Numbered from the stretch's first letter, positions 25,227 through 38,237 are shown. The stretch is 38,237 nt of DNA from Candidatus Omnitrophota bacterium (GCA_026387165.1 JAPLMG010000114.1:1-38237); one strand, 5' to 3'. Made by a program: numbers and translations. Notes: generated from the sequence alone by a model not told the origin.

Positions 25227-25332
25227 CTAATAGCTCCGTTTTGTACTTTTTAATCTTCTAAATAAATAGGTGAAAAATATACTTGTCTGCTATCGCTCAG
25301 ACAAGTGATTTGATCTGCCGTTACATATTGTA

Positions 25333-25360
25333 ACTATACCATAGGATTTTATATATACAA
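25333..25360 (-). promoter_or_regulatory. possible promoter for the 3758-aa ORF (TTGTAT-N16-TGgTATAGT)
   Basis: The minus strand reads aTTGTATatataaaatcctaTGgTATAGTtac. It would give a 5' UTR of about 100 nt containing the 9-bp hairpin acttgtctg / cagacaagt (25281-25306). Confidence 0.35.
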
Positions 25361-25548
25361 TGCTAAATAACTTAGTTTTTTCTTCCTTAACCAACTTATT
25401 CCAAGAAAGCAAAAATTAAATTAAAAAAATTAACCAAAAAGTTACAGGAAATAGAAGATCTCTGATCCTAAAATACATTTGAACAGAATCTCCATTTTTG
25501 TTTTCACTCCATCTTAACGGCCACCTCTTCCCGTTTTTTTAAAAAACG

Positions 25549-25708
25549 CTTTATCCCCAAGCACTTACGCTAAACCCCATGCGGTTACTTTCGCCCAATT
25601 CTAACAAACCTTCTGGCGAAGGTAACCGCATGGCTTTAGGGAGAAAAAATCACTTGAACACTCTTTAAGCCGAAAGAAGAGAGCCTCACCAAAACGAAAG
25701 GTGAAAAA
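25549..25708 (+). repeat. left 160-bp inverted repeat (IR-L) bounding the accessory island
   Basis: By hand alignment, the reverse complement of 37893-38052 matches 25549-25708 with 9 mismatches and no indels. It contains a 19-bp-stem hairpin at 25577-25633. Confidence 0.9.
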
Positions 25709-25757
25709 CAGCCTATGCAAACGATTGGGACTGTTTCGATAGGAGTTGTATAACGAA

Positions 25758-26135
25758 TTACGAGGTGGCTAACTTCGAGAGGTAACTAACGTCTATCGTT
25801 TCTATCTCCACTGCTTCTATTTTTGATTTTGGCAGGGCGCGATTAGCGGCAACCGTTCTAAACATCTCGGTAACGTTGTCGCTTGCGTTGATAAAATTGA
25901 TCTCTTTTTTCTTAAAAAAGCTCTTATTAAGCTTCTCTTTCAATACCAATAGTTCGTGCGCAGCTGATCGGGAGACAAACTCCACCGCTGAAAAGTCTAA
26001 GTTAATAGCTTTCGCATGCGCTTTTTCTATGGTCGTCTTTAGACTAGACGCTACGTCACGAGAGCCAACTATGGGCGCCAAGTTCTTAGCAACATCTATA
26101 TTAATTGTTTTTGTCTTTTTAACCATTTTTATCAC
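25758..26135 (-). CDS. STAS-like domain protein (DUF4325-like)
   Basis: 125 aa. The segment INLDFSAVEFVSRSAAHELLVL resembles the STAS/DUF4325 core (LDF.gV..isSsf.dE). It lies 28 nt downstream of the GHKL ATPase gene, the usual pairing for this family. Confidence 0.5.
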   Translation of the reverse strand: MIKMVKKTKTINIDVAKNLAPIVGSRDVASSLKTTIEKAHAKAINLDFSAVEFVSRSAAHELLVLKEKLNKSFFKKKEINFINASDNVTEMFRTVAANRALPKSKIEAVEIETIDVSYLSKLATS

Positions 26136-26163
26136 CTAACTAAGTATACCACAGCGACCGGCA

Positions 26164-27015
26164 TTATTCAATATAAGGTATTATGTTAATGGAGTGTGTT
26201 GGTTTTGGTATCCGATAGGCAATAATTACGCCTTGCCAGTAAAATCCCGGTAAATTCACTATGCTCTTCTTATTGTCAAACGATAGAAACGCTGCGTTGC
26301 CGGATAATAGCACAAACCCGCCGCCCAATGCCTCGCAGACAACCCTTGTAGATGTGCGTATCCCATACCCGCGCTCCTTATCCCGCTTGGTCGAATACCC
26401 TTCCAGTGCCTGCTTGATAGCATCTACGTCTGACAGTTCTACCTTATTTTCTTCTTTGTAGGCGTTCGCCAACCCCCTGCCATTGTCTACTATACACATA
26501 TCCAAGAAATTCTTGCTCTGATACAATTGCCCGAATACAAAACCCTCATCTTTTTTGCTGTGGTCAAATATGTTGGATATAAATTCAGCCACGGGATAAT
26601 AGATAGCGTTCTCGGTTCCCTTTGTATTGCCAAGTATCTTATAAATCATCTCCAGAAATAACGTTTCAAGGCGCTCTCTTTGTTCTCTGGCATCCTTTTT
26701 CAGAATACTGATCGGTACGAAGTTCTTGCCCTTGTGAAGCTGTTGCTCAAAGGCAGTGACCGAATCTACGCCGTGGGGGAAATTTATTGTTTCAAGATAA
26801 GATTTTAAAGACGAATTTCCAATGGTAAATGTACTGCCGGTACTGTAAATGTAAGAAGTAAGCGGCAGAACAATTAGAGGATATGCCCAGCTCATATCTT
26901 CCAGGTTGAAATTAACTTTCTCACCTTTCTTTATATTTTTAAAGGAATTATAGAGCGCCAACACCTGCTGTAATAGCGCATCGGACTTATAGTTTGGGAC
27001 TTTAACTTCTCTCAT
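26164..27015 (-). CDS. GHKL (histidine kinase-like / anti-sigma-factor-kinase-like) ATPase with an uncharacterised N-terminal domain
   Basis: 283 aa. The C-terminal half has an N-box-like EFISNIFDHS, a G1 box VDNGRGL and a G2-like ERGYGIRT. The N-terminal ~130 aa has no motif I recognise. Confidence 0.65.
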   Translation of the reverse strand: MREVKVPNYKSDALLQQVLALYNSFKNIKKGEKVNFNLEDMSWAYPLIVLPLTSYIYSTGSTFTIGNSSLKSYLETINFPHGVDSVTAFEQQLHKGKNFVPISILKKDAREQRERLETLFLEMIYKILGNTKGTENAIYYPVAEFISNIFDHSKKDEGFVFGQLYQSKNFLDMCIVDNGRGLANAYKEENKVELSDVDAIKQALEGYSTKRDKERGYGIRTSTRVVCEALGGGFVLLSGNAAFLSFDNKKSIVNLPGFYWQGVIIAYRIPKPTHSINIIPYIE

Positions 27016-27035
27016 AGCGCCCTTTCTTTGACGGT

Positions 27036-27044
27036 ATTATATCA
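27036..27044 (-). promoter_or_regulatory. extended -10 promoter element (TGaTATAAT) upstream of the GHKL/STAS pair
   Basis: The minus strand reads gagTGaTATAATaccgtcaaagaaagggcgctATG. The -10 lies about 21 nt from the ATG, with AAGGG as a possible SD. There is no good -35. Confidence 0.4.
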
Positions 27045-27205
27045 CTCGGCTTTCGTACAGCATACATAATATGCTTCGCTTCTATTGCTCAACCTTGACT
27101 CTTGCCTTAAAGTAGTTTAAGAGGTTTTGGGGACGGGTCCCTGAAAATGTTCCCTTTTCGATCAAATATGCGAGCTTTTTTAATTTTCAGTCGTAATACA
27201 TATAT

Positions 27206-28693
27206 CTACTCGCACAACTTTCTTAATTCATCTAATATTTCTATCATGCCCTTTGTATCCAAATCACAATACTTTTCAAGAGCGGCTCGGATGCGCTGGC
27301 GCTCCTTTTCGCAAACGTCTTTCCCGAAGGTTACCCGATAATACTCCCTGCTAGCCATCCCGCCATCCGCTATTTCCATATCATCGTAGCTTGATTTTGT
27401 CATCACTGGAAGGACGCTCTTGAGCGAGGCGCTACCTGCCTGGCCCGGATGGTAGTAGGAGAACCCTCGAAAAGGAACGAGCAGATCAACTATACGCTCC
27501 TCCAATCCGGCTACCCAGTCCTGATATTCAGTATATGCCTCACTTGCATGCCGAAGGGCTGTCTTTTCAAATATGGCGTTATACGCAATTATCGATCCTG
27601 AATTACCCAATAGCGCTTTCAGCTGTTTTAAAATCTCAGGCCGAGGATCATTACCGTCCGGCGCAAGATACGCGTGACGTTTGTGCTTTGCGTTCTTATC
27701 TTTGATTCTATATAAGGAATATTGAAAAGGAATGGCCTCAAACGGTCTTGAGTTGTCATAAGCCGGTATCGCGGGGTTTATCGTTTCAAAATCGAGGAAA
27801 TAAAGAGGGTATTTCAATTCTTTAATGAATTCCTCTATTGCCTTCTTGTCAATGTGCGGCTTGCCGGACCTGTGGGATATAACCTGAATATTTTGCCTAT
27901 GGCTTAAGCTTACATCTTCTTTTATATCAGTAATACGCAGTATGCCGCGCTCCATCAACTCATAGGCCTTCTTTGTTCCGGAATATAAACAAAAGATATC
28001 GTCCTTATTCGGCAGGAAACTCCAGCAGATATCCTCAAGAGGGCAAGGATATAGCTTATCACAGTGAGGGCCGACGATTACGTGCGGGGCAGCCTTCTTC
28101 CCGATCACTTCAAGCATATCGGATATATCCTCTTCAATCTCCGGAATGAGCTCATCGCATTGCTTTGTAACGTCTTCTGTGGCAAACAGCTTTTTTGGCT
28201 CTATCTTTCCTTTGCGCACATATTGGTTATTGATATACATGAGGTAACACTTGCGGATCTTCAGGCCTGAGCCTTCATATACATACTTTTGGAAGGCGAT
28301 GTCATTATAATGCTCGTCCTTTACGCTGCTGGAGCTTTTCACTTCAATGAGATCCCAGGCGTCTTTCTCAACTGGGTTAAGGATATCAGCTAAGGCATAG
28401 CCTTGTTTATACACATAACCGGCCTCAAAAAGAGGCTTTCGAAGCTTGGCGGCCTCCGAAGACTTTGTTGCCTGTTTGGTCGGATCGTAGTCTCTCTGGA
28501 GAACGATACCACCGGAAAATAGAGTATGCGCCAATTCGCCTACAATACGGCCTTGATCCATAATGAATTGTGTAGCGGCATCTATTTCCGGAAGCTCTTC
28601 CTTGCGGTTATACTCATACCATAGAAGCTTATGGCATCTAAGCCCTTCGAGGTATTTGGTTTTGGATAGAAATGGAGATGGCCTATTTTTCAT
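27206..28693 (-). CDS. DUF2779-type protein: Cas4/RecB-like PD-(D/E)xK nuclease fused to a DEDD-like 3'-5' exonuclease domain
   Basis: 495 aa. The N-terminus LSKTKYLEGLRCHKLLW is typical of DUF2779. It has ADIL...LIEVKSSS (D...ExK) and the Cys cluster HCDKLYPCPLEDIC. The C-terminal half has FLDFET (DxE), AYNAIFEKTAL and YCDLD, consistent with a DnaQ-like fold. Confidence 0.6.
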   Translation of the reverse strand: MKNRPSPFLSKTKYLEGLRCHKLLWYEYNRKEELPEIDAATQFIMDQGRIVGELAHTLFSGGIVLQRDYDPTKQATKSSEAAKLRKPLFEAGYVYKQGYALADILNPVEKDAWDLIEVKSSSSVKDEHYNDIAFQKYVYEGSGLKIRKCYLMYINNQYVRKGKIEPKKLFATEDVTKQCDELIPEIEEDISDMLEVIGKKAAPHVIVGPHCDKLYPCPLEDICWSFLPNKDDIFCLYSGTKKAYELMERGILRITDIKEDVSLSHRQNIQVISHRSGKPHIDKKAIEEFIKELKYPLYFLDFETINPAIPAYDNSRPFEAIPFQYSLYRIKDKNAKHKRHAYLAPDGNDPRPEILKQLKALLGNSGSIIAYNAIFEKTALRHASEAYTEYQDWVAGLEERIVDLLVPFRGFSYYHPGQAGSASLKSVLPVMTKSSYDDMEIADGGMASREYYRVTFGKDVCEKERQRIRAALEKYCDLDTKGMIEILDELRKLCE

Positions 28694-28813
28694 ATTTAAA
28701 TTCTAGCTTTCCATAAAAATGGGTATCAATTCTTTTATTTTTTAAACTATCTAAGATTGCCTTTATTTTGTTTACCCTACTACCCGATCATAGCAAACAA
28801 GTGCTTTTTATAT

Positions 28814-31042
28814 CTATTGATTTCGTTCCTCTTTGACAGTTTTACTCAATAACTCCCAAGCACCAATTGGATCTAATTTTGAAGAAGCATAGTCGGCTGA
28901 TAAAAGTTCTTCAGTAAGAAACAAATCATATTTTTCCTTGGCTTTGTTTTGGATGGTTGAAGCAAGTTTCAAGGGATCAACGGGGACTTCTTTCACAATC
29001 TCCTGCAAGCTCTTTTCAAGCTCTATTTCACTTATTTTTGATACAAGGATTGCAATTTTCTCATTTTCCGCTTTAAGGCCGCGGGATCGAAGCTGTGCGG
29101 CAATCGTGTTCATAATTTTGTCTCCGGCCCAGCAAAAAAATATGGCATCATTTCCATGACCAATAATCCGCTGCTTGAGCAAACCCAAGCGATTGAAAGT
29201 CTCACGCCCTTCCATGAGAAGGTCAACGGCTCTTGGATTTAAAAATTTCGGAACTTCTTCTGAGGTATAAATTGCAAGCATTTCCCGGCGCACAAAATCA
29301 TGAACCCAACCTGTATCACCGAAAAATTTCGGCGGTTTGCCTCCTGATGCAGCCGCTAGCTCTATGACTTTTTTATGAGAATCCACTATAATGACGGACC
29401 ATCGCTTACCACCAAAAATCAGGAGTGACCCCTCGCTAATGGGGCGATCTATAGGCAAGGTTCCCAGGGTGCGAGATCCTGAAATAAGACGATATTCTTC
29501 ATAGGTTGTAAACGCTGTATAGAACGAATAGTGATTGACTATTTTTTCCCCCTGTTTTCCATGAAGCAAAAGTCCATCACCGCCCTGGCAGATGAGCTCA
29601 TGTTTTCCCATACTTCTCAACAAATTTGTATACATTGCTTGATCAACTGCAGAAAACGTAGCGTGGTGGCATAAGATTTTCCATGCCTGTTCAGCAGTTA
29701 CTCCGCCATATTGAGCAATCACTGACATAACCTGTTGAACCAATGTTGAAAGATGAAGCCCATTAATCGTCGGTGGCTCATACCATTTGGCAATTAATAG
29801 CTTGACCATTGCGATAGTCTGCACAAGATCGGCTCGTAATGCGTCAATCGGATGAGTATTTTTTGTGATTTCTTCTTCCTCGATATAAACTCGCAAAACG
29901 GCTGATGTTCCTGCTCTTCGTCCCGAACGGCCCAAGCGTTGGCGCATACTGGCAACAGAAGGCGGGACCCCGATCTGCACGATACTGTCCACAGCTCCAA
30001 TATCAATTCCCATCTCCAGGGTTGAAGTACAAATAATGCTGACCGGCTGGGATTTGTCTTTAATCGCCTTTTCCGCGTCTTCCCGAAGTTCCTTTGATAA
30101 GCTTCCATGATGCGGCCAGAAAGCATTGGGGACTTTTTTCTCTTCGCACAATCGTCTTAAAAGATCCGCGTATTTTTCCACATTTGACCGGCTATTGGCA
30201 AAAACAAGATTATTGCTTCCTCGTAAAGTTTTGAAAAGAGAATTCCGTATCGCTAAAACGCTCTCGTCATCTTCCTGTGCAGAATTAGCAGATTCTTTTT
30301 CTACTTCTATGGACGTAATATTTGGTTCCCGATGCAGATATCCTTTTAAGAGGAGGCGCAATTCCTGACCACTTGATTTTGAGACAATCAACACCACGTC
30401 GTTTCCATGTCCAGGACGCAAAAACTCTGCGGCAAGGGACATATCCCCCAACGTTGCACTAAGCCCAATCCTTGGGATTTTACGTTTAATTGAAAACTCC
30501 AGACGATGGAGTAACGATTGCAACTGACATCCCCTCTCAGTTCCGATAAAAGAGTGGAGCTCATCAATCACAATATAAGCAAGATTTTTAAAAAGAGACT
30601 GAACACTATGGCCTTGATTGACAAAAATTGCTTCGGTCGATTCCGGCGTTATTAGCAAAACGCCTTGAGGATGTTTAAGGAACTTCTTTTTCTTTGAAGA
30701 TGAAATATCTCCATGCCAAGGATGGACTTGAATATCAAGATTTTGACACAATTTCTCCATGCGCGAAAACTGGTCGTTAATAAGGGCTTTTAATGGACTA
30801 ATGTAAAGAACGGAGGCAGTTGGATTCTTTAATAAATTTGAGCAAATAGGCAGGAAAGCGGCTTCCGTCTTACCGCTTGCGGTGGCAGCAGCAATAATGA
30901 TATCCTTTTCTCCCTCCAAAATAGGAGTCGCTGCAGATTCCTGAGCATCACGGAGTTCTGTCCACCCCTGTTCCCAAATCCACTTTTGAATTCTTTCATC
31001 AAAAGAGGAAAAAACGGCAGACTGCGGGGTTAAGGATTTCAT
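28814..31042 (-). CDS. sngC: Shango-like SngC: Lhr-like DExH-box helicase
   Basis: 742 aa. Motifs are: motif I AATASGKTEAA, motif II IVIDELHSF, motif III LSATLG, HHGSLSKELRE, motif V TSTLEMGIDIG and motif VI QRLGRSGRR. It lies 7 nt downstream of the ATPase gene. Confidence 0.7.
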   Translation of the reverse strand: MKSLTPQSAVFSSFDERIQKWIWEQGWTELRDAQESAATPILEGEKDIIIAAATASGKTEAAFLPICSNLLKNPTASVLYISPLKALINDQFSRMEKLCQNLDIQVHPWHGDISSSKKKKFLKHPQGVLLITPESTEAIFVNQGHSVQSLFKNLAYIVIDELHSFIGTERGCQLQSLLHRLEFSIKRKIPRIGLSATLGDMSLAAEFLRPGHGNDVVLIVSKSSGQELRLLLKGYLHREPNITSIEVEKESANSAQEDDESVLAIRNSLFKTLRGSNNLVFANSRSNVEKYADLLRRLCEEKKVPNAFWPHHGSLSKELREDAEKAIKDKSQPVSIICTSTLEMGIDIGAVDSIVQIGVPPSVASMRQRLGRSGRRAGTSAVLRVYIEEEEITKNTHPIDALRADLVQTIAMVKLLIAKWYEPPTINGLHLSTLVQQVMSVIAQYGGVTAEQAWKILCHHATFSAVDQAMYTNLLRSMGKHELICQGGDGLLLHGKQGEKIVNHYSFYTAFTTYEEYRLISGSRTLGTLPIDRPISEGSLLIFGGKRWSVIIVDSHKKVIELAAASGGKPPKFFGDTGWVHDFVRREMLAIYTSEEVPKFLNPRAVDLLMEGRETFNRLGLLKQRIIGHGNDAIFFCWAGDKIMNTIAAQLRSRGLKAENEKIAILVSKISEIELEKSLQEIVKEVPVDPLKLASTIQNKAKEKYDLFLTEELLSADYASSKLDPIGAWELLSKTVKEERNQ

Positions 31043-31049
31043 AAAATTC

Positions 31050-32363
31050 TCAGAGTTGAAAAGAGGCTAAATTCTCTGTATCACCTTTTTCTGCTGGTTC
31101 TTCTGCCAAAGGTTCCAAGTCGGGGTTAGATTCTTTTTTAATTTCGACCGTGCCGATCAAATCCTGCCAGTTAACATTTTTATTCTGTTCGAGTACCGAT
31201 AACAAATTAACGAATGCCGTAATCGTCGTCCTGGGAGTCCTAAAATAGGCATCTCCAATTCTTTTTGAACAATGTTCCATAAAAGCCTTCAATCCGTCAT
31301 CAGGAAGAAGATAAGCTGCCGAATCTCCATAAGCAAAAACGTGTCGAATATTGCCGATTAAAATATAAAAATCTTCCGGGCTTAAGTTGCCTAACCGCAA
31401 TACTGGCCCCGTAAGATCAACCAATCCGTTAACGGCAAAAACATTTTCTACCAGACGCGATTGAAGAGCCGGATAACTATAGAGGCCGCGACGTGTATCC
31501 ATCAAAAATTCAGGAGTCCCTCCCATCAGAATACCTAGCCCTGAAGCAATCCCCTGAAGACTGTCGTTCAAGATGCGAAGAATTTGTTCATAATTAGAAT
31601 TCCGCGCTTGTGTATTTGAAAGCTTATAAATATTCACAAGTTCATCCAAACATATTAAAAATCCATCATATCCTGCCAATTTTATGAACAGTGCCATGAG
31701 TTTTAAATGATCGTAAAAAGAGGCGTCATCAATGATGACACGAACCCCCAAAGCTGTCCTGGCTTCTGTTTTGGTGGAGAATTCACCCCGCAACCACCGT
31801 ATAGCGTCCGATTTAAGTTGTTCGTTGCCGGTATCATGACCTTTCCAGTATGCAGCAATGACATTTGCGAAATCATAGCCGCCCACCATCTCTGAAAGTT
31901 TTGCTAAACGCTCATGAATTAAGGTTTCCGGATTGGTATTTCGCGCACATGCTTCTTTGAGAATTTCGGAAATAAAACGCTCTACGATACTGGTAAGAGC
32001 GCCACCATCCGGCTTGGTTCGTGTGGAAATATTTCGCATAAGTTCCGCGTACAAGGAGCGAGCCTGGCCGCCTGTAGCATGAAGTCTTCTGTCAGGTGCC
32101 AAATCGGCATTTGCTGTAACTAGCCTCTTTTCCATGGCAATCGCACGAATCAGGTTCAAAAAAAATGTTTTTCCTGAACCGTACTCTCCAATTATGAATC
32201 GTATTGTCGAACCAGAATCCGCAATACGCTCAATGTCCTTAATTAGAGCTTCTACTTCCTTAACCCTTCCTACTTGAATAAGATGCTGGCCGGTTCTTGG
32301 AACAACCCCTGCTCGAAGCGATTGTATAACCGCGTCACGGTCTTTAGGACGAATGGTTGTCAT
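31050..32363 (-). CDS. sngB: Shango-like SngB: P-loop ATPase (DUF2791-type)
   Basis: 437 aa. Walker A is IGEYGSGKTFF and Walker B is FLICLDELVN. Its start overlaps the stop of the TerB gene by 4 nt (ATGA), implying translational coupling. Confidence 0.7.
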   Translation of the reverse strand: MTTIRPKDRDAVIQSLRAGVVPRTGQHLIQVGRVKEVEALIKDIERIADSGSTIRFIIGEYGSGKTFFLNLIRAIAMEKRLVTANADLAPDRRLHATGGQARSLYAELMRNISTRTKPDGGALTSIVERFISEILKEACARNTNPETLIHERLAKLSEMVGGYDFANVIAAYWKGHDTGNEQLKSDAIRWLRGEFSTKTEARTALGVRVIIDDASFYDHLKLMALFIKLAGYDGFLICLDELVNIYKLSNTQARNSNYEQILRILNDSLQGIASGLGILMGGTPEFLMDTRRGLYSYPALQSRLVENVFAVNGLVDLTGPVLRLGNLSPEDFYILIGNIRHVFAYGDSAAYLLPDDGLKAFMEHCSKRIGDAYFRTPRTTITAFVNLLSVLEQNKNVNWQDLIGTVEIKKESNPDLEPLAEEPAEKGDTENLASFQL

Positions 32364-34681
32364 GTTTGAAGCTCCTTTAAAACATTAGGATTAATTTCAA
32401 TCGGGTCATCGCCTTCAAAAAAAGGCTGATCAAAAGCCGTAAATGCGGCATCATTTATTGAATCGAGCACACCATCCAAAAGTAAATCGTTTTTAGCGGC
32501 AAGAGCTTCGATTTCCTCTCTTGCCCAAGATAACTTCTGGGAAAGTTCTTTGATGAATCCATGATATTCGGATTCAAAATGCTTGAAATTTCCCGCCACT
32601 TCGATTATAGTTTTTTCGACAATAGGAGATAGTGTTTTCTCTTCGTTAAAAATATTGCTAAGCATCGCTGTCACTGCGGCGGTTTCGGCAAGTTTCACAT
32701 CAACCTTATTCATGTCGAGTTCAACACTCACGAACTTCTTCCTGTGAGCAGGCTTCGGTACAGCATAGGATGGCCCTTGCGTTTCCGCGTCCTCGATCTT
32801 AACCGGCTCTGTTGCCGCAATGTGAACATGGCTATAAAGCTCTTTGGAGTCAAGGCCAATAAGTCCGTAAATTTTATTCAATATTTTAACTTCGGAAGAA
32901 TCAATATAACCGTCCACTTGGGCAACTGAGACTAAAAACCTTCCGAGAGTTTGACGCTGCGTTTGATTAAAAGATTCCAAACGCTTTTTAACCCCTGAAA
33001 AATTTAAGGAACTGGAAAATATCCATCGCGTATGAGCACGCAGCCTTACTCTTTCATCTGAACTAAGCTGGAACCGGTTTTTTAATTGCTCCTCCAAAAG
33101 CCTCTCTTCTTCTTCAGATACTTTTCCATCTGATCCTGCAACCGCTGCTGCTAAGTGAAGGATAGTGGTGGCCGAAGCGTATTCCGGCGTAGGGGAATTA
33201 GCCGACTCCGTTGGCGATCTAAACAACACTACGGGTCCCGATTCCGGTAAAGAACCGTCAAACCGGACATCCGGCTCTATTCCAACGCCTATTTTGGCCA
33301 ATAACTGGCACAAAGCCATGAAATCACGCTTATTGAAACTTTCCGGTTTTAACAAAGGAAAATGTCGAACAATACTTTGAATATCAGTCACAAACATCTG
33401 ATCCGATACTATATTCTTGCTAAGCCATTGCTTCAAGGCTTGCAGTTCGTCATCTTGATAATCTTTCAATAGCGGAGCGGGAAATAACGCCAATTTAGCA
33501 AGTGGTGAAGGATCATTACCACTCCTTCCCAGATATCGACTATAAGGGTCAAGTTCTGAAACGCATGCTTCCGCAATTTTTAACATCTGGTTAATTGGCC
33601 CACGATATGCCGCAACATCCAACAATCCTTCCTCAACCCACTCAACGGCTCCTCCAAAAGAAGCACTTGCAGGACGATAACTACCTCTGAGCTTGGATCC
33701 CTTTTGGAGAAGCATTAAACCTTCTCCAAATTTTTCTCTGTAACGAACGTGAAATAATTTTCGGAATTCCTCTTTGCATCGGTATGCGGGCGTGCGTAGT
33801 CTGCTCTCTGGGTCATTTTCCACCCAAGCAAGAGCCCAATCAGGCGGTAGCGGTATGCCATCAGCGGCTAACTGAGCTAATCCTTTCTTCAAACCAAAAG
33901 GCAGCTCATATCCTTTTCCCTCAAATGATGGTGAATTTTTATACAACTTGTCTTTTGTTCTTCTCGATTCAACGGCACTTATAAAACCCGCTGTATAATT
34001 TAAAAAGGATGACGTATTGTAAATAGTTCTTAACCGTTTAATTTCGGTAAGAATTACCTCCAACTCTTCTTTTGCAGCAGATGAATTTTCTGCATCAGAG
34101 AGAGCTCGCCGCTCAAGACCATAAAAATAAAGAAAAACATAGCTAATATTAATACTGGGATCCTTGCAACCGTCCGCCAGCCACTGCAAATAAGCGTTTC
34201 TTGAAGCGGGATGAATCTGACTATACGATGGCCAATAGGACATGTGCATGCCATCCTTATCAAATGAATCTTTCTCCACAGGCAAAGAGGGGTCAATCAA
34301 TGCTGGTTCGATATCCCATCCAATGCCCCGTCCTCGTGCATAATATAAGCCATGACCAACGTAAAGCAATCCGCCCGAAATTGTATAGCCAGCAACTGTA
34401 ACAGGTTTTCCTTTGGGAATCCAAACATAATCAGGAAAAATAGAAGATTTTTGGCGGGAAGAATAATCTGAAGTAGAAATAGGTGCCCTATCGATTATAG
34501 GCTCTATATCTGTTGTCTTGTATATATATCCTCGTATATCTTGCTCTTGAATTGTTATCGTCGATGTGTCCAAACCATCCTCATGGCTTAATTTTTTCCC
34601 TGCGCCGTCTTGACGCTTTTTTTGTTGCGCCAAAGAAAAAATGAACATAAACACAATTATTAGTATGATGACTATCCCCAT
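32360..34681 (-). CDS. sngA: Shango-like SngA: membrane-anchored TerB-N / TerB / TerB-C domain protein
   Basis: The ORF track starts at a TTG (34711). I prefer ATG 34681, with AAGGGA 8 nt upstream, because a TATAAT box lies inside the TTG extension. It has an N-terminal TM (GIVIILIIVFMFIFSLA) and a TerB-N-like WIPKGKPVTVAGYTISGGLLYVG. TerB-like DG motifs are AVAGSDGKVSEEEE and VAQVDGYIDSSE. The TerB-C-like segment is VELDMNKVDVKLAETAAVTAMLSNIF. Confidence 0.7.
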   Translation of the reverse strand: MGIVIILIIVFMFIFSLAQQKKRQDGAGKKLSHEDGLDTSTITIQEQDIRGYIYKTTDIEPIIDRAPISTSDYSSRQKSSIFPDYVWIPKGKPVTVAGYTISGGLLYVGHGLYYARGRGIGWDIEPALIDPSLPVEKDSFDKDGMHMSYWPSYSQIHPASRNAYLQWLADGCKDPSINISYVFLYFYGLERRALSDAENSSAAKEELEVILTEIKRLRTIYNTSSFLNYTAGFISAVESRRTKDKLYKNSPSFEGKGYELPFGLKKGLAQLAADGIPLPPDWALAWVENDPESRLRTPAYRCKEEFRKLFHVRYREKFGEGLMLLQKGSKLRGSYRPASASFGGAVEWVEEGLLDVAAYRGPINQMLKIAEACVSELDPYSRYLGRSGNDPSPLAKLALFPAPLLKDYQDDELQALKQWLSKNIVSDQMFVTDIQSIVRHFPLLKPESFNKRDFMALCQLLAKIGVGIEPDVRFDGSLPESGPVVLFRSPTESANSPTPEYASATTILHLAAAVAGSDGKVSEEEERLLEEQLKNRFQLSSDERVRLRAHTRWIFSSSLNFSGVKKRLESFNQTQRQTLGRFLVSVAQVDGYIDSSEVKILNKIYGLIGLDSKELYSHVHIAATEPVKIEDAETQGPSYAVPKPAHRKKFVSVELDMNKVDVKLAETAAVTAMLSNIFNEEKTLSPIVEKTIIEVAGNFKHFESEYHGFIKELSQKLSWAREEIEALAAKNDLLLDGVLDSINDAAFTAFDQPFFEGDDPIEINPNVLKELQT

Positions 34682-34700
34682 CGCATCTATCCCTTGAATT

Positions 34701-34729
34701 ATTATAGACAAGACCTCTCAATATGACAC
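34701..34729 (-). promoter_or_regulatory. candidate promoter of the Shango-like operon (GTGTCA-N17-TATAAT), with the -35 inside a motif shared with the XRE gene
   Basis: The minus strand reads caGTGTCAtattgagaggtcttgtcTATAATaattcaagggatagatgcgATG. The -10 is a perfect hexamer at 34706..34701. The -35 at 34729..34724 overlaps the 11-mer AGTGTCATATT. Confidence 0.45.
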
Positions 34730-34876
34730 TGCTGAATCTTATTCGTTTTTGTCTTGCCGTTGAGTCCCCTAGCTCACAGTTAAAGAACTGAAGTCAATTA
34801 CCTATCTTTTGTACAAAGTCTTATTTACAAAAAGCGTACAAATGCTATCTTCTTTACACGTCTATTGTTCTTTAAA

Positions 34877-35053
34877 TCATTTACCGCCATTCAATAATTT
34901 CTTTATATGATACTGTTGTATTTTTCTCGGCTTATACTTACCATTCAGCCAGCGGTTAACAGTAGCGAATGCAACGCCTAATTCTTTCGCGAGCTGTTCC
35001 TGGGTAATTTTATTCTCAAGGCGATATTGTTCAAGTTCCTGTATGAGGGTCAT
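34877..35053 (-). CDS. XRE-family helix-turn-helix transcriptional regulator (58 aa; below the ORF-track cutoff)
   Basis: Hand translation gives [78 protein letters not shown] is a canonical HTH_3 motif. No SD is present, and a -10-like TATAAA lies 10 nt upstream of the ATG. Confidence 0.7.
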
Positions 35054-35184
35054 AATATGACACTTTATAACACTATTTGGGGCAAGTCAAGCGGAATATG
35101 GGGAGAGGTCCGTGCGGCTATCTATCTTTGTGATCATAATGGTATTGCAGGACGAAAAGGAAGAGGTGTCAATGAAAAAAAAGG

Positions 35185-35829
35185 TTACTTATTAGATTTA
35201 GGTTGCGATGGCCCCCTATAATCGCGAGGATCTATACAGGTATCATAAGTCTGCCTATCGATTTTAATCCATTCTGTTTTATTGATACCTCTTGAATTCG
35301 TATAAGTTGGGCTTACGGGGAAGGCAGATGCTATTCTTATCCAACGTTTTTGCTCAATCGATATTACCCTAATCTCATCGGCTACTTCGCTTAAATCTTG
35401 ATCCTGGCTAAAAACTAGTGCTACATCATATACTTTTTGATGGGCAAGACGAATAATGTCGAGAGCTATGCGAATATCTATGCCTTTTTCTCGCCCCACA
35501 AGGAAAGTGTGAACATTGCCATTCGGAAGTGTTATTTTTTCATTATTATAACGTAGAGACCTTGAATATACTTCAATTCCTACCTGGCCCATAGAGGCTA
35601 ATTTATTATTCCAAAAAGTATTCCAAAAAATATTATCTTGAACATCAGGCACGCCAGTATAGAAACATATCTTGGCTAAATCCCATCCCTTAGAAGAACA
35701 TATTTTCTCTGACAGTTTTTTAATATCATAGTTAGGGTAAATATAGCCAAAGGCGTCTTTAGCGCCTCTATATAAGCACTGGCCATCAACAAAAACTACT
35801 GCCTTTTTTATAGTGGGTTCTTTTGCCAT
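35185..35829 (-). CDS. NYN (LabA/DUF88-like) domain protein, putative RNase
   Basis: 214 aa. Acidic NYN signature blocks are in order: VVFVDGQCLY, GREKGIDIRIALDIIRLA, and VALVFSQDQDLSEVA. Confidence 0.7.
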   Translation of the reverse strand: MAKEPTIKKAVVFVDGQCLYRGAKDAFGYIYPNYDIKKLSEKICSSKGWDLAKICFYTGVPDVQDNIFWNTFWNNKLASMGQVGIEVYSRSLRYNNEKITLPNGNVHTFLVGREKGIDIRIALDIIRLAHQKVYDVALVFSQDQDLSEVADEIRVISIEQKRWIRIASAFPVSPTYTNSRGINKTEWIKIDRQTYDTCIDPRDYRGPSQPKSNK

Positions 35830-35928
35830 TTTCGACTCCTATAACGAATAACCCCGCCCGAACCTTTGCAGGAATCAAGCGGGGATCAAGTAAACTTATA
35901 TAGTATCTATCATTTCTGAAGCAAAGTA

Positions 35929-35956
35929 ATTATACCATGAAAAACATCTTTGTCAA
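35929..35956 (-). promoter_or_regulatory. consensus sigma70 promoter (TTGACA-N16-TGgTATAAT) upstream of the NYN gene
   Basis: The minus strand reads cTTGACAaagatgtttttcaTGgTATAATtac. The -35 is at 35956..35951 and the -10 at 35934..35929, about 100 nt upstream of the ATG at 35829. Confidence 0.55.
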
Positions 35957-35992
35957 GCCTTCCTTTAACAAAAAATACTTCCTTTTTTCTGC

Positions 35993-36181
35993 CTAACTTA
36001 CCGACCAGACTAATGAAACTACCCAGCCCAAAACAGTCCATCCCAAAAGAAGGTTTAACAAAAATATAGCGAGCTTATTTTTATGCTGCTTTAAAAAGGC
36101 TACGAGAGTCGGCAGAAAATAAAACGCGAATATTAAAACGATCGCCAGCAGCTCAACTAACGATAATTCCTGCATCTGCAT
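35993..36181 (-). CDS. superinfection immunity (Imm_superinfect family) small membrane protein
   Basis: 62 aa with two TM helices. The segment FYFLPTLVAFLKQHKNKLAIFLLNLLLGWTVLGWVVSLVW matches the family signature (FLP...A..R.H.N..aI...NlllGWT.lGW..aLvW). Confidence 0.7.
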   Translation of the reverse strand: MQMQELSLVELLAIVLIFAFYFLPTLVAFLKQHKNKLAIFLLNLLLGWTVLGWVVSLVWSVS

Positions 36182-36184
36182 GGG

Positions 36185-37114
36185 TTAATACTCTCTTTCA
36201 AAAGCTATTGCACTTCCTGTTTTCTTGCTCATCATTAAGGCTAAATCTAGCAATGCCCAAATCCCAAAAACTATGGCTGATAATCCTAAAGCAATTACCA
36301 GAAATAGCCGGCCTTCTTTCAGTATAAAGCCATGCCAAAAGCTCCAGAGGATTACCTGCCAACCTTCATTGCTAAAGGCCAAGATCGGTTCATGATACCC
36401 AATCCTCGCGAACCAGTAACTGAATACCCAATACAGGTAATACATCCATAGAAAGAAGCTCCTTGTGGCTAAGGCAATAAATAAAACCCCTATTCCTACC
36501 AAGCCTAATACGTCATAGGGAGTGAGATTTTCTTTGAATATGTTACCCATCGCCTTGGATAAAAGCACCGTTTCGGAATACACCCAGGAGTATCTCTCTT
36601 CCAGTCTTGCAAGGAAAAGATAGGGCTTTAATCTTTCCATATCACCTGTCCTGCCGGTTTTCTTAAGAAAGTCATTAAAATCACTTACCGAAAGGCTTCC
36701 TAAGTTTCGGTCCGGATTTTTAAGATCATGGCAGATAGCCCGGGAGCAGCTGCCGGTTAAAGTAAAGGCCTTCTTAAGACCATAGCTAGTGCCGGAAGGC
36801 GCAAAATCAAACTTCCATGATCCGGGAATCCCAAAATAGCCTGTTCTCATAAAATAGGCTGATTCCCGGTTATCTCTAGTGACATCTCGTGGCGGCACAA
36901 CCATCATAAGGGCGCTGGCACCAGATATATCCTCTAAAGAAGAGCCTAAAAGGCCGGTCTTCACTACCACGGGGATATCAGGATAAGGCCCAAAGAAGGC
37001 GGCCTTCCTTGCGTAATTTAGGCCAACATACCACCCGAAGCCTACATAAACAATCGGAAGCAGTAATAGCACCCTTATGAAAAACTTTTTTACGCAAAGA
37101 TATCTATTTATCAT
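36185..37114 (-). CDS. hypothetical polytopic membrane protein
   Basis: 309 aa. It has an N-terminal TM (VLLLLPIVYVGFGWYVGL), a soluble segment of about 170 aa, and three C-terminal hydrophobic helices. It overlaps the upstream gene by 11 nt and ends 3 nt before the Imm-like gene. I recognise no motif. Confidence 0.6.
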   Translation of the reverse strand: MINRYLCVKKFFIRVLLLLPIVYVGFGWYVGLNYARKAAFFGPYPDIPVVVKTGLLGSSLEDISGASALMMVVPPRDVTRDNRESAYFMRTGYFGIPGSWKFDFAPSGTSYGLKKAFTLTGSCSRAICHDLKNPDRNLGSLSVSDFNDFLKKTGRTGDMERLKPYLFLARLEERYSWVYSETVLLSKAMGNIFKENLTPYDVLGLVGIGVLFIALATRSFFLWMYYLYWVFSYWFARIGYHEPILAFSNEGWQVILWSFWHGFILKEGRLFLVIALGLSAIVFGIWALLDLALMMSKKTGSAIAFEREY

Positions 37115-37889
37115 GGCTCTTATCCACTCTATCGTATATTAACCTCAAAGCCTCTTTTATCGTCATATATTCATCCTGATAAAAACACATACCTATATCA
37201 AGTGAAAGTAAGTCAGCCACTATAAACGCTCTCTTAGAAAACTCAGGTTTTATATAAAAGAGCCTATTTTTAATGCCGTCGAAATTAGAGCTTGAGGAGG
37301 CTGCTATCAAGACAACATCGTATCTTGAGTGTTCGGGCATGGCATAGGATATTTCGCGGCTATAACCATATACCACAACCTCCCAGGCACTCTTTTTCTT
37401 ATACCAGGTCTCAACCTCTAAGGCTATTTTTACACCGGGAGATGTTACTATAACACCATCCGGGATCTTGCTTCTTGTCTTGCGGTCTTTTCTTATGACC
37501 CACTCGGGTATCCATTCTTTTATCTCCAGCTGCTTATAGATAGAAAAATAGCTCTCAATAACGGCTTTTTGATGCTCAAGGGTATTAAGGCCGGCGTTCT
37601 TGTGATTGAAGCGGTAATAGCCGCTAAATGGCTCATATTTAGAGATACATTCCTTACCTCTTTGGGTTAAATAGTAAACCTTAAGGCTTAAGGCTGGCTC
37701 ACGGTAGGCAGCGATAAGGCCCCGCTTAACAGAGTAGTCTATTAACCAGCGCTGGTATGATAGCCCAAGCCTGTCTTGGCCAAACTTAAAGAGCTGTTCT
37801 CTTGTGGCATATCTGAAGATAAATATAAACCTAAGCAGCATCCCGATCCTATACGCTTGCTCTTCCTTGGTTATCCTACCTTTTCCCAT
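37104..37889 (-). CDS. replication-relaxation (Replic_Relax)-like protein: N-terminal winged-HTH plus PD-(D/E)xK-like C-terminal region
   Basis: 261 aa. RFIFIFRYATREQLFKFG...RWLIDYSVKRGLIAAY...VYYLTQRGKECI resembles the wHTH of the family. Later come LEHQKAV, then IPDGVIV...IALEVETWYKKK. The start codon lies 3 nt inside the inner end of IR-R, which provides the AAGGTG SD. Confidence 0.5.
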   Translation of the reverse strand: MGKGRITKEEQAYRIGMLLRFIFIFRYATREQLFKFGQDRLGLSYQRWLIDYSVKRGLIAAYREPALSLKVYYLTQRGKECISKYEPFSGYYRFNHKNAGLNTLEHQKAVIESYFSIYKQLEIKEWIPEWVIRKDRKTRSKIPDGVIVTSPGVKIALEVETWYKKKSAWEVVVYGYSREISYAMPEHSRYDVVLIAASSSSNFDGIKNRLFYIKPEFSKRAFIVADLLSLDIGMCFYQDEYMTIKEALRLIYDRVDKSHDK

Positions 37890-37892
37890 CTA

Positions 37893-38052
37893 TTTTTCAC
37901 CTTTCGTTTTGGTGAGGTTCTCTTCTCTTGGCTTAAAGAGTGTTTAAGTGATTTTTTCTCCCTAAAGCCATGCGGTTACCTTCGCCAGAAGTCTTGTCGG
38001 AATTGGGCGAAGGTAACCGCATGGGGTTTAGCGTAAGTGCTTGGGGATAAAG
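37893..38052 (-). repeat. right 160-bp inverted repeat (IR-R) bounding the accessory island
   Basis: This is the reverse complement of IR-L (9 mismatches, no indels by hand alignment). It contains a perfect 19-bp-stem hairpin at 37968-38024. ORF-track entries 37776..38036(+) and 37933..38154(-) run through it and are probably spurious. Confidence 0.9.
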
Positions 38053-38237
38053 AACATCTTTAAAAAATAATTCACAAATTAATGCACTATAAATTACGCG
38101 GCTAATGCATACCTCAAAGTGAATTCCTTGAGAATTAAAATGCGAATTAATCATGCCCTAAAGGTGATGGTCCGACTGCTTTCTTATGGTCATATACTCT
38201 TACAGTTCGTTTCATATAGCCCCTTCGATTGTAGGTC

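Follow-up and report, generated by a model that had tools for sequence, protein, structure and literature searches.

Candidate oriT-like sites in inverted orientation around a defence-carrying island, probably a reduced integrative element, of Candidatus Omnitrophota

The relaxase family PF13814 includes the MOBC relaxases TraX of pAD1 and MobC of CloDF13 (PMC5357655, PMC3424549, PMC12857230, PMC6736028). In both systems, TraX/oriT2 of Enterococcus pAD1 and MobC/MobB of CloDF13, the relaxase combines an N-terminal winged helix with a PD-(D/E)xK domain (PMC12857230, PMC6736028), its gene adjoins the gene of a coupling protein, and the cis-acting site with its inverted repeat is situated beside the relaxase gene (PMC5587640). 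Little is yet understood of MOBC relaxases: a covalent DNA intermediate has never been detected, and the sole binding site that has been studied is located far from nic (PMC12857230, PMC6736028). Another arrangement of interest is found on the conjugative IncX plasmids R6K, pOLA52 and R485, which carry two origins of transfer (oriT) within long inverted repeats (PMC3402527, PMC5587640), a layout that has so far been regarded as an IncX peculiarity (PMC3402527). Here, we report on a 38,237-nt stretch of DNA from a Candidatus Omnitrophota bacterium (GCA_026387165.1, JAPLMG010000114.1:1-38237; a complete contig, in the following called the window), in which an island of defence genes is enclosed by one long inverted repeat. 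We consider it probable that the two arms of this repeat represent inverted copies of an oriT-like promoter-leader site, which belongs to a MobC-type relaxase in a reduced, defence-carrying integrative conjugative or integrative mobilisable element (ICE or IME).

The locus shares with the pAD1 and CloDF13 systems the domain architecture of the relaxase-like protein, the adjoining coupling-protein gene and the cis element with an inverted repeat beside the relaxase gene. In pAD1, the repeats bound by TraX are found 70-120 bp from nic (PMC12857230), and here short direct repeats occur tens of nt from a conserved hairpin. However, the similarity to these systems is only remote, since Pfam and NCBIfam thresholds were missed and no plasmid match was obtained; moreover, the present locus is a tRNA-linked island in an Omnitrophota chromosome, its type IV coupling protein (T4CP) is cut down to the membrane domain, and its site is a putative oriT. 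With the IncX plasmids, the closest precedent for its layout, it has in common two inverted copies of a transfer origin, here a candidate one, of which one is beside the relaxase gene and the other distant (PMC3402527, PMC5587640). In contrast, the IncX elements are plasmids with a MOBP-type relaxase, TaxC, and their second copy is near a replication gene, whereas here the pair brackets the relaxase operon, in the window together with defence cargo, within a chromosomal island. The third group to be compared comprises tRNA-borne IMEs or decayed ICEs with defence cargo. These are likewise found at the 3' side of a tRNA gene, have a lower G+C content, a module of relaxase and T4CP, defence cargo that varies among relatives and, as in some of the relatives studied here, serine recombinases. 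They differ from the window in that it has no integrase and no att repeat, and a duplicated inverted oriT-like site is unusual in IMEs. The kind of element, an ICE or IME with a MOBC-type relaxase, is already known, as are dual oriTs, and the island of the window is probably an ordinary-looking, decayed integrative element and not a new class of transposon. Our literature search found no description of this family, of its conserved cis element, or of an inverted pair bracketing DNA transfer and replication (Dtr) genes together with cargo.

The repeat arm and the relaxase-like gene

The repeat search of the window returned a single long inverted repeat, whose left and right arms (IR-L and IR-R, Table 1) are 178 nt long, 91% complementary and separated by 12,178 nt. 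The runner-up inverted pair comprises 32 nt at 72%, and all other repeats in the window are at most 42 nt long. An earlier interpretation made from the window alone (the sequence-only reading) had described a 160-nt core of this repeat (25549-25708 / 37893-38052), which is contained within the 178-nt arms, and its view that the inverted repeat is real was confirmed. The two arms differ by 13 substitutions and one 2-nt gap. Three mismatches and the gap are located at the outer edge, one (C/T) falls into the 5' arm of a stem, where a G-U pair is kept, four into the hairpin loop and five into the 3' tail. Each arm can form a hairpin with a perfect 19-bp stem and a 19-nt loop, a feature that the sequence-only reading did not contain. 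An unfiltered covariance model detected only these two copies in the window, with scores of 97 bits for IR-R and 92.6 bits for IR-L. IR-R contains the AAGGTG Shine-Dalgarno sequence of the relaxase-like gene and reaches its ATG, in agreement with the sequence-only reading, and downstream of IR-L only a 12-codon open reading frame (ORF) is found. A conserved region outside the repeat, the box region, which may be a promoter or a protein-binding region, precedes IR-R; its counterparts were seen in distant relatives and it is absent at IR-L.

The arm belongs to a non-coding element of approximately 150-180 nt that occurs in more than 150 Omnitrophota loci (given as L plus a number). A nhmmer profile found the element in 152 of 155 loci, and a pattern scan of metagenome DNA yielded at least 120 matching stretches; the hairpin scan of a viral collection gave no match. 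The upstream element could be aligned in 24 loci, in all of which it stands ahead of homologous genes, and its plan persists upstream of homologues with an amino-acid identity as low as 38%. From 5' to 3', this plan consists of a CCAAGCACTTA box, a hairpin of about 19 bp, a AAAATCAC tail and the ribosome-binding site. The 3' arm of the hairpin (CGAAGGYWACCGCA) is nearly invariant, the 5' arm is variable yet still pairing, and the loop holds a family-conserved TTCnnCAACAA-like motif. When 94 distinct sequences were placed on the covariance model, 84.5% of the cells were paired, compared to approximately 40% in slid controls, and eight hairpin pairs showed changes on both sides. The arm is thus non-coding, contains an inverted repeat, is situated beside a relaxase-like gene and is conserved with its family, as is expected of an oriT. 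It precedes one gene family and otherwise occurs as orphan copies; the sequence-only reading had considered that it might turn out to be a common leader of many unrelated genes, which is not what the relatives show.

The protein encoded behind IR-R (261 aa) has more than 120 homologues, nearly all of them from Omnitrophota and many with a precomputed PF13814 assignment; the names of homologues also assign the source of the window to Omnitrophota. In a 40-sequence alignment, P143, D144, T161 and Y163 do not vary and E158, E160 and K164 are nearly invariant, i.e. the conserved core has the form D...ExE..K plus an invariant tyrosine. An AF2 model (pLDDT 89.6) was compared by Foldseek, which gave the restriction endonucleases EcoO109I and R.BspD6I, Can2 and Cas4-like proteins as best matches of the C-terminal part and MarR/MecI/F93 winged helices as those of the N-terminal part. 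Hence, the winged helix, the PD-(D/E)xK core with acidic ligands and tyrosine, and also the linkage to genes for a T4CP and mating-pair formation are present as in MOBC relaxases. The sequence-only reading regarded this protein as the candidate end-processing enzyme of the island; it is better read as a homologue of MobC-type relaxases. The argument for conjugation genes is based on gene context rather than on profile evidence. The usual order after the arm is the relaxase-like gene, the T4CP gene and then the gene of a small Imm protein. The 309-aa membrane protein of the window is 55% identical over 274 aa to the N-terminus of a 746-aa protein of L034, and because this long form shows the domains TraG-D_C, TrwB_AAD_bind and T4SS-DNA_transf, the gene after the relaxase can be assigned to a type IV coupling protein. 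In L024, L019 and L027, the operon continues with a VirB2-like pilin, TraL, an Imm-like peptide, TraE, a CagX/TraK-like protein, TrbI/TraB, TraV and an 845-aa TraC/VirB4, which together constitute an F-like type IV secretion system, and a TraG_N protein is encoded immediately upstream of the arm. The module of the window is, judged from this comparison, probably a reduced version of the L024-type operon. In such full-length relatives, the Imm homologue is located inside the tra operon, between TraL and TraE, which lets us infer an entry-exclusion role for the Imm peptide. Since the arm heads an operon of relaxase, coupling protein and, in some relatives, type IV secretion genes, it is found at the place where an oriT and relaxase promoter-leader would be expected. 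As a separate observation, L024 (8361-20738) and likewise L019 and L027 appear to be previously undescribed conjugative elements.

The main rival of an oriT-like site is a role at the RNA level, which may also coexist with one at the DNA level. According to this explanation, the arm would act chiefly as structured RNA: as a 5' leader, it would regulate how the relaxase-like gene is translated and keep the ribosome-binding site within a small 3' hairpin, while the inverted copy would give rise to an antisense transcript into the operon, or add the leader's complement to the 3' end of the mRNA, and thereby cause RNA-RNA repression of the module and its cargo. We regard this as unlikely, albeit several observations are consistent with it. 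The arm begins close to the likely transcription start and ends exactly at the start codon or, in the L071 type, at ATG+17; its fold is far more stable than that of shuffled sequences; the varying 5' stem arm keeps its pairing with the fixed 3' arm; and on the sense strand 142 G-U pairs are opposed to 57 A-C mismatches (2.5 times), an excess that is about as compatible with an RNA leader as with a DNA strand that is transferred. Furthermore, orphan arms always face the 3' end of a convergent operon. However, many well-conserved orphans stop short of the ribosome-binding site and no ORF follows, the arms of L115 and L099 are only about 65% identical, so that long-range complementarity is not required, and IR-L has no upstream box region. 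Neither a sigma-70-type promoter nor an intrinsic terminator was found at IR-L or IR-R, and Rfam 15 gave no match in the window at the gathering score.

The second inverted copy and the exchange of flanks

Convergent pairs of arms, 1.5-3.7 kb apart, were found in nine other loci (L034, L047, L053, L070, L071, L112, L115, L124, L131). Most of these pairs enclose just the relaxase-like gene, the T4CP gene (or its N-terminal domain) and Imm, and in most of the compact pairs the distal copy begins at the stop codon of the last gene. In four loci (L004, L013, L017, L099) the inverted copy is found upstream instead. Where the sequence downstream of a relaxase-linked arm extends over at least 3.5 kb, an inverted copy follows in 7 of 30 cases, and 4 of 23 arms have one upstream; in total, 14 inverted pairs are opposed to a single direct one (L046). 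Among the explanations offered by the sequence-only reading, the duplication of a regulatory leader therefore came closest, in that the arm is a family-wide upstream element with a recurrent second, inverted copy.

In distinct lineages the partner is the closest relative of an arm: partner arms are 94-100% identical, whereas arms of different lineages share 60-90%. In the close trio L070, L071 and L112, a distal arm has its best match in the proximal arm of a different element, and in L115 and L099 the partner arms come from different subfamilies (approximately 65% identity). L001 has 177 nt ahead of the gene for an 85%-identical relaxase-like protein that are 91% identical to both arms of the window, and no second arm within 9 kb, while L164 shows the same junction between STAS-like gene and arm as the window at 95% identity. 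These relationships bear on the possibility that IR-L is only a scar, i.e. that a related element, or part of one, once resided in opposite orientation at the same tRNA-Glu hot spot and that recombination or deletion left only its arm, in which case the pair would have no joint function. IR-L is indeed equally distant from IR-R (91.5%) and from the L001 arm (91.6%), and it has its loop allele and other sites in common with L001 and not with IR-R. Moreover, the 45 nt after the distal arm of L164 are of the same type as those after a solo arm in L151 and are not relaxase codons; L151 combines this solo arm with a gene for a winged helix-turn-helix (wHTH) protein at the same tRNA-Glu site; and the mixed subfamilies of L115 and L099 point in the same direction. 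The proposal of the sequence-only reading that two elements were joined and one was largely deleted receives some support from the equal distances of IR-L and from the extension of L164, which is as in L151. Nevertheless, we consider a mere scar unlikely, because the inverted pair recurs directly after the operon in lineages whose relaxase-like proteins are only 38-65% identical, with arms that are 94-100% identical and a strong bias towards the inverted orientation, whereas a neutral remnant would be expected to decay or vanish.

Two observations concern the hairpin itself. Differences between paired arms cluster in the loop (L070, L071, L112, L047), and two loop versions, TTCTTCCAACAAGTC and TTCAGCCAATAATTC/A, are each found in the proximal or the distal arm depending on the element. 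A flip-flop inversion of the loop in the style of parvovirus termini was ruled out, as the loops of the two arms are not reverse complements of each other.

The relaxase-like gene follows only 80 of 166 arm hits. Many high-scoring orphans are located directly after the stop codon of a convergent operon, for example an operon of a protein of unknown function, ThiF and JAB or a SpoVG-like gene, and these arms end within approximately 2 nt of a common position, short of the ribosome-binding site. Their other side shows a divergent 72-aa gene, followed by DUF6876, an excisionase-like HTH protein and, in some loci, a serine recombinase. Orphans that lack a downstream gene, yet end sharply at a common position and rank among the top-scoring hits, fit a site required in cis better than a 5' untranslated region. 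Clustering of the flanks assigned 53 arms to the combination of a TraG_N or box side outside with the relaxase-like gene inside and 29 to a small-gene side outside with cargo inside, but also seven to the small-gene side with the relaxase-like gene and two to the TraG_N or box side with cargo. Since all four combinations of outer and inner flank exist, the arms appear to be points of module exchange or inversion. An oriT-specific recombinase activity has been reported for the MOBC relaxase TraX (PMC5714925), which by analogy offers a possible mechanism for the mixed flanks.

Serine recombinases are encoded in the relatives L004, L013, L046, L088 and L127. In L013 (3284-3492), an orphan arm ends exactly at the ATG position and is followed by the near-consensus promoter TTGACT-17-TATAAT and the gene of a 563-aa serine recombinase, i.e. 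the arm is directly upstream of the recombinase transcription unit. The 57-bp palindrome was considered as an att or hix site of a serine recombinase but is not favoured: both half-sites are intact in every copy, many arm-bearing elements have no recombinase, and the L013 enzyme has its own promoter downstream of the arm. Rejected were a miniature inverted-repeat transposable element, as the 38 kb contain only two copies and every copy found goes with this family of elements, and an analogy to integron attC sites, as arrays and a tyrosine integrase are absent and the arms are conserved in primary sequence.

Crossovers between the arms could also serve as an on/off switch, in which inversion of the segment uncouples the relaxase operon and its cargo from the promoter or box region. 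The layout with this region outside and the leader inside the repeat would be that of a switch, the minority classes among the four flank combinations are as expected of a flipped state, the cross-relationship of arms in L070, L071 and L112 fits as well, and the recombination of oriT copies by TraX (PMC5714925) could be its enzymatic basis. As in Hin/Gin-type switches and shufflons, an inverted repeat brackets a block of genes with the promoter region outside; however, the arms are 150-180 nt long here compared to approximately 26-34 bp, there is no invertase gene, and no two-state population was observed. In approximately ten compact cassettes and in the window the relaxase gene is always on the wHTH or tRNA side, the rarer junction classes may represent gene orders that are alternative but stable, and no one sample was found with both states of one element. 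A switch is hence very doubtful. The suggestion of the sequence-only reading that the repeat is a substrate for inversion is favoured by the four flank combinations and weakened by the uniform orientation of the compact cassettes. A related explanation regards the arms as recombination sites of the PD-(D/E)xK, MobC-like enzyme, which would allow capture and shuffling of defence cassettes in conjugative elements of Omnitrophota independent of an integrase. The enzyme would cut and rejoin at the arms, thereby invert the segment and splice foreign operons beside an arm. The basis for this explanation is that unrelated cargo meets the arm at nearly the same nucleotide, that all four flank combinations exist and that some islands (L034, the window) have arms and no integrase; it seems quite improbable to us.

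Under the oriT-like interpretation, which we prefer, IR-R would be the working copy ahead of the relaxase gene and IR-L a second, inverted copy at the far end of the element, so that two sites of opposite orientation would flank the Dtr genes and the defence cargo. In either copy, the hairpin region would be bound and nicked by the relaxase-like protein, and strand transfer could thus be entered at two points, one on each strand, as in IncX plasmids. The arms may double as preferred crossover points for relaxase-mediated or homologous recombination, and such crossovers would invert the enclosed segment or swap modules among related elements. Duplicates in direct orientation would delete the DNA between them, so that inverted ones alone would persist. 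We infer oriT function, nicking, the direction of transfer and any present-day activity from sequence comparison.

If this is true, a family of conjugative or mobilisable elements exists in Omnitrophota, a little-studied phylum of very small, partly host-dependent bacteria, and joins a relaxase of the restriction-endonuclease type (MOBC-like) with a coupling protein and, in some members, F-like secretion. It would further provide a defined cis element of approximately 150 nt with a conserved hairpin and more than 150 natural variants as a possible MOBC substrate, and the inverted pair of transfer-origin-like sites would represent a route by which defence cargo is moved, inverted or exchanged.

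Position of the island and weight of the evidence

L001 is homologous to the window from 38182 to 35998, a stretch that includes IR-R and stops where the Imm gene ends. L151 and L056 match 37887-38237 at 92-93%, and the homology of L151 continues up to the window end at 38237 (92%). In both, the order is gyrB, gyrA, tRNA-Glu, the wHTH gene (159 aa), the box region and the arm. In L151 (1246-2460), the arm is solo, with no relaxase gene; a short unrelated ORF and hydrogenase/NuoB-like genes follow, and the approximately 45 nt after it recur after the distal arm of L164. Because homology, wHTH gene and tRNA gene extend beyond IR-R in these relatives, IR-R is internal. The distal end of the island is marked by IR-L, which has the giant gene (3758 aa) as its left neighbour. 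The approximately 100 nt adjoining this gene are homologous to the upstream region of its orthologue in L156 (79-nt match, E 6e-5). L156, which encodes the best orthologue of the giant gene, has no island and shows gyrA, tRNA-Glu, 280 nt and this orthologue. Comparison with the near-identical relatives thus places the island of the window, in all likelihood, between tRNA-Glu and the giant gene; the tRNA gene itself is past the window end and was placed from L151 and L056, and the tRNA search of the window returned none. The comparison with L156 is one of synteny at 59% protein identity and not a same-species empty site. The best orthologues of the giant gene are only approximately 60% identical, and another one, in L157, has a different neighbourhood. 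The sequence-only reading called for empty-site alleles, and an island-free locus was obtained by synteny, whereas a same-species empty site was not found.

Insertion at a tRNA site and an island-free relative, both of which characterise ICEs and IMEs, are therefore seen (L151, L056 and the synteny of L156). In other relatives the neighbours are tRNA-Phe, tRNA-Ser, tRNA-Glu and tRNA-Asp. A whole element is found in L034, with the order tRNA-Phe, wHTH gene, arm, relaxase, T4CP, a 145-aa protein and inverted arm; it has ordinary chromosomal genes on both sides, and its distal arm is approximately 70 nt away from them. The G+C content is 0.38-0.45 (approximately 0.42) in the island and 0.47-0.53 (approximately 0.49) over 1-23000, so that the G+C check proposed by the sequence-only reading gave a lower value inside than outside. 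The best-supported view is that the island belongs to a family of elements specific to Omnitrophota, of which it is a reduced, integrative conjugative or mobilisable member.

This position also bears on the idea that the PD-(D/E)xK protein moves a transposon-like unit, with the arms as its terminal inverted repeats. Long inverted ends around a nuclease gene and cargo, together with sharp arm ends, would suit such a unit, and PD-(D/E)xK enzymes act in some transposition systems (TnsA, Rpn). However, conservation continues past IR-R into the box region, the wHTH gene and the tRNA of relatives, so that the repeats are not the outer limits; no target-site duplication was found, the flanks of the arms being different (...TCTTCCCG vs TAATTCAC...); only two copies exist in the window; the enclosed genes include conjugation genes and no transposase; and the block bounded by the inverted repeat was not seen at unrelated sites. 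This explanation is largely refuted and retains hardly any probability. The sequence-only reading had proposed terminal inverted repeats of a mobile element or, alternatively, an integrated plasmid-like element; the former is not supported in view of the homology beyond IR-R and the lack of a target-site duplication, and the latter is supported by the relaxase-like gene and the T4CP fragment.

It must be mentioned that several points weigh against the oriT-like interpretation, in addition to the G-U excess and the extension of the arm to the start codon. The assignment to MOBC rests on remote homology and gene context. The 261-aa protein of the window has no Pfam PF13814 match at E<=0.01, and its NF041423 match (E 4.8e-6) scores 26 bits, the cutoff being 200; with 26.4 and 27.8 bits, homologues that share 48-50% identity narrowly exceed the PF13814 gathering score of 25.3. 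A tblastn search with this protein against 72,556 plasmids gave no match. The T4CP of the window has no ATPase domain and secretion genes are absent, and the copies in the window may therefore be relics of an inactive element. No integrase was found among the island genes and no att repeat was detected; near IR-L, comparison with the tRNA-Glu 3' end and the tRNA-proximal end of the island gave only 10-nt matches at chance level, and no att direct repeat was found in L034 either. An integrase of its own and att repeats, which likewise characterise ICEs and IMEs, are therefore missing from the island. Roughly three quarters of the well-covered relatives have no second copy within reach, and all approximately ten compact cassettes show one orientation, so that inversion in them would be hypothetical. 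Finally, the arm evolves no more slowly than its coding neighbours between close relatives: it is 91.8% identical to that of L164 compared to 95.3% for adjoining coding DNA, and 90.5-91.6% identical to that of L001 compared to 88.6%.

Cargo genes and further observations

Table 1. Coordinates of the repeat arms, genes and adjoining regions in the window
Feature	Position	Strand	Basis or remark
Junction zone between island and chromosomal giant gene	25227..25533	.	L156 homology
IR-L, distal orphan arm	25534..25711	+	Inverted copy, faces 3' end of cargo operon
IR-L hairpin	25577..25633	+	One U-G stem position on + strand; RNA folding z-score against shuffled controls -5.3
STAS-like protein	25758-26135	-	Weak STAS match
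GHKL ATPase	26164-27015	-	Weak HATPase_c match
DUF2779 / Cas4-like nuclease, cargo	27206..28693	-	PF11074 6e-36; Cas4 models
Shango system, whole	28814..34711	-	PADLOC and Pfam
sngC	28814-31042	-	SngC 1e-281; DEAD/Helicase_C
sngB	31050-32363	-	SngB 1e-184; BrxC_BrxD
sngA	32360-34711	-	SngA 7e-85; TerB_N/TerB/TerB_C
Small XRE-type HTH protein, 58 aa	34877..35053	-	HTH_3 4e-11
NYN-domain cargo gene	35185..35829	-	PF01936 1e-9; HEC-09 2e-11
Imm_superinfect membrane peptide, 62 aa	35993..36181	-	PF14373, 4e-20
Membrane protein, 309 aa: T4CP N-terminal transmembrane domain, no ATPase domain	36185..37114	-	L034 comparison
Relaxase-like protein, 261 aa, wHTH and PD-(D/E)xK, replication-relaxation / MobC family	37104..37889	-	Homology, alignment, AF2
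IR-R, proximal arm	37890..38067	-	Upstream element of relaxase-like gene (candidate oriT / promoter-leader), ends at ATG
IR-R hairpin	37968..38024	-	3' stem arm CGAAGGTAACCGCA nearly invariant in family; loop with conserved TTCnnACAA-like motif; RNA folding z-score against shuffled controls -6.1
Conserved region upstream of IR-R, outside repeat	38068..38237	-	Direct repeats GTGCATTAATTT / GTGAATTATTTT and ATTAATTCGCATTTTAATTC box

All 11 genes of the island are encoded on the minus strand. Their families, as named in the sequence-only reading, were borne out by Pfam and PADLOC, with weak matches for the GHKL and STAS-like proteins, and its statement that no recognisable transposase or integrase is present holds for the window: the domain search of the 11 genes revealed neither a recombinase nor a transposase. 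Approximately 10 kb of defence cargo are situated inside the pair between Imm and the distal arm, namely NYN, HTH, Shango, DUF2779 and the GHKL/STAS-like cassette (25758..27015), which is the final operon ahead of the distal arm. SngA with its TerB domains, the SngB ATPase and the SngC helicase are encoded in one operon, as is characteristic of the Shango system. The cargo varies among relatives and includes PLD-SNF2 and an MmeI-type methylase in L001, DUF4917 in L071 and an E1/JAB trio in L120. In L071, L112 and L124, co-oriented cargo is found outside the distal arm, and a homologue of the 58-aa HTH protein (L053, 194-415, 63% identity) is also outside the distal arm.

Regarding individual cassettes, the GHKL and STAS-like pair has homologues (45-60% identity) across Patescibacteria (Parcubacteria, Paceibacteria, Magasanikbacteria) and in one Thermococcus, and in PADLOC the GHKL protein resembled DrmA in the N-terminal region of the latter (E 8e-11). 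A three-gene operon coding for an unknown protein of approximately 195-255 aa, a ThiF/E1-like protein and a prokaryotic JAB protein repeatedly ends exactly at an orphan arm (L120 2414-4756, L130 4669-7219, L139, L048, L083, L036). It looks like a ubiquitin-like conjugation/deconjugation defence cassette that is carried as cargo.

At the tRNA side of L001, the 5' two-thirds of tRNA-Leu are duplicated approximately 180 nt upstream of the intact gene (8515-8580 and 8697-8762), just ahead of tRNA-Glu and the start of the element; an earlier event of integration or excision may have left this duplication behind.

The left 25 kb of the window carry housekeeping genes (GlmS, NagA-like, phosphoribosyltransferase) and two giant ORFs. 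The one next to the island (13950-25226, minus strand, 3758 aa) has an N-terminal part of approximately 630 aa that belongs to a family found in many Omnitrophota proteins of approximately 900-1000 aa and a C-terminal part with the P-loop helicase motifs GPPGTGKT and DEAARA. In its upstream region, a hairpin with a 10-bp stem (25280-25307) resembles a bidirectional terminator and overlaps a promoter-like TTGTCT-17-TATATT on the minus strand. The other giant ORF (6304-13254, minus strand, 2316 aa) gave weak GNAT and methyltransferase matches only. Short intergenic repeats with TAGAAATTAAGAAATTGGT-like motifs were observed at 156-197 and 2503-2554, near the phosphoribosyltransferase and tetrapyrrole-methylase genes, and an inverted pair at 162-187 / 424-449 belongs to the same set, which may represent a shared regulatory motif.

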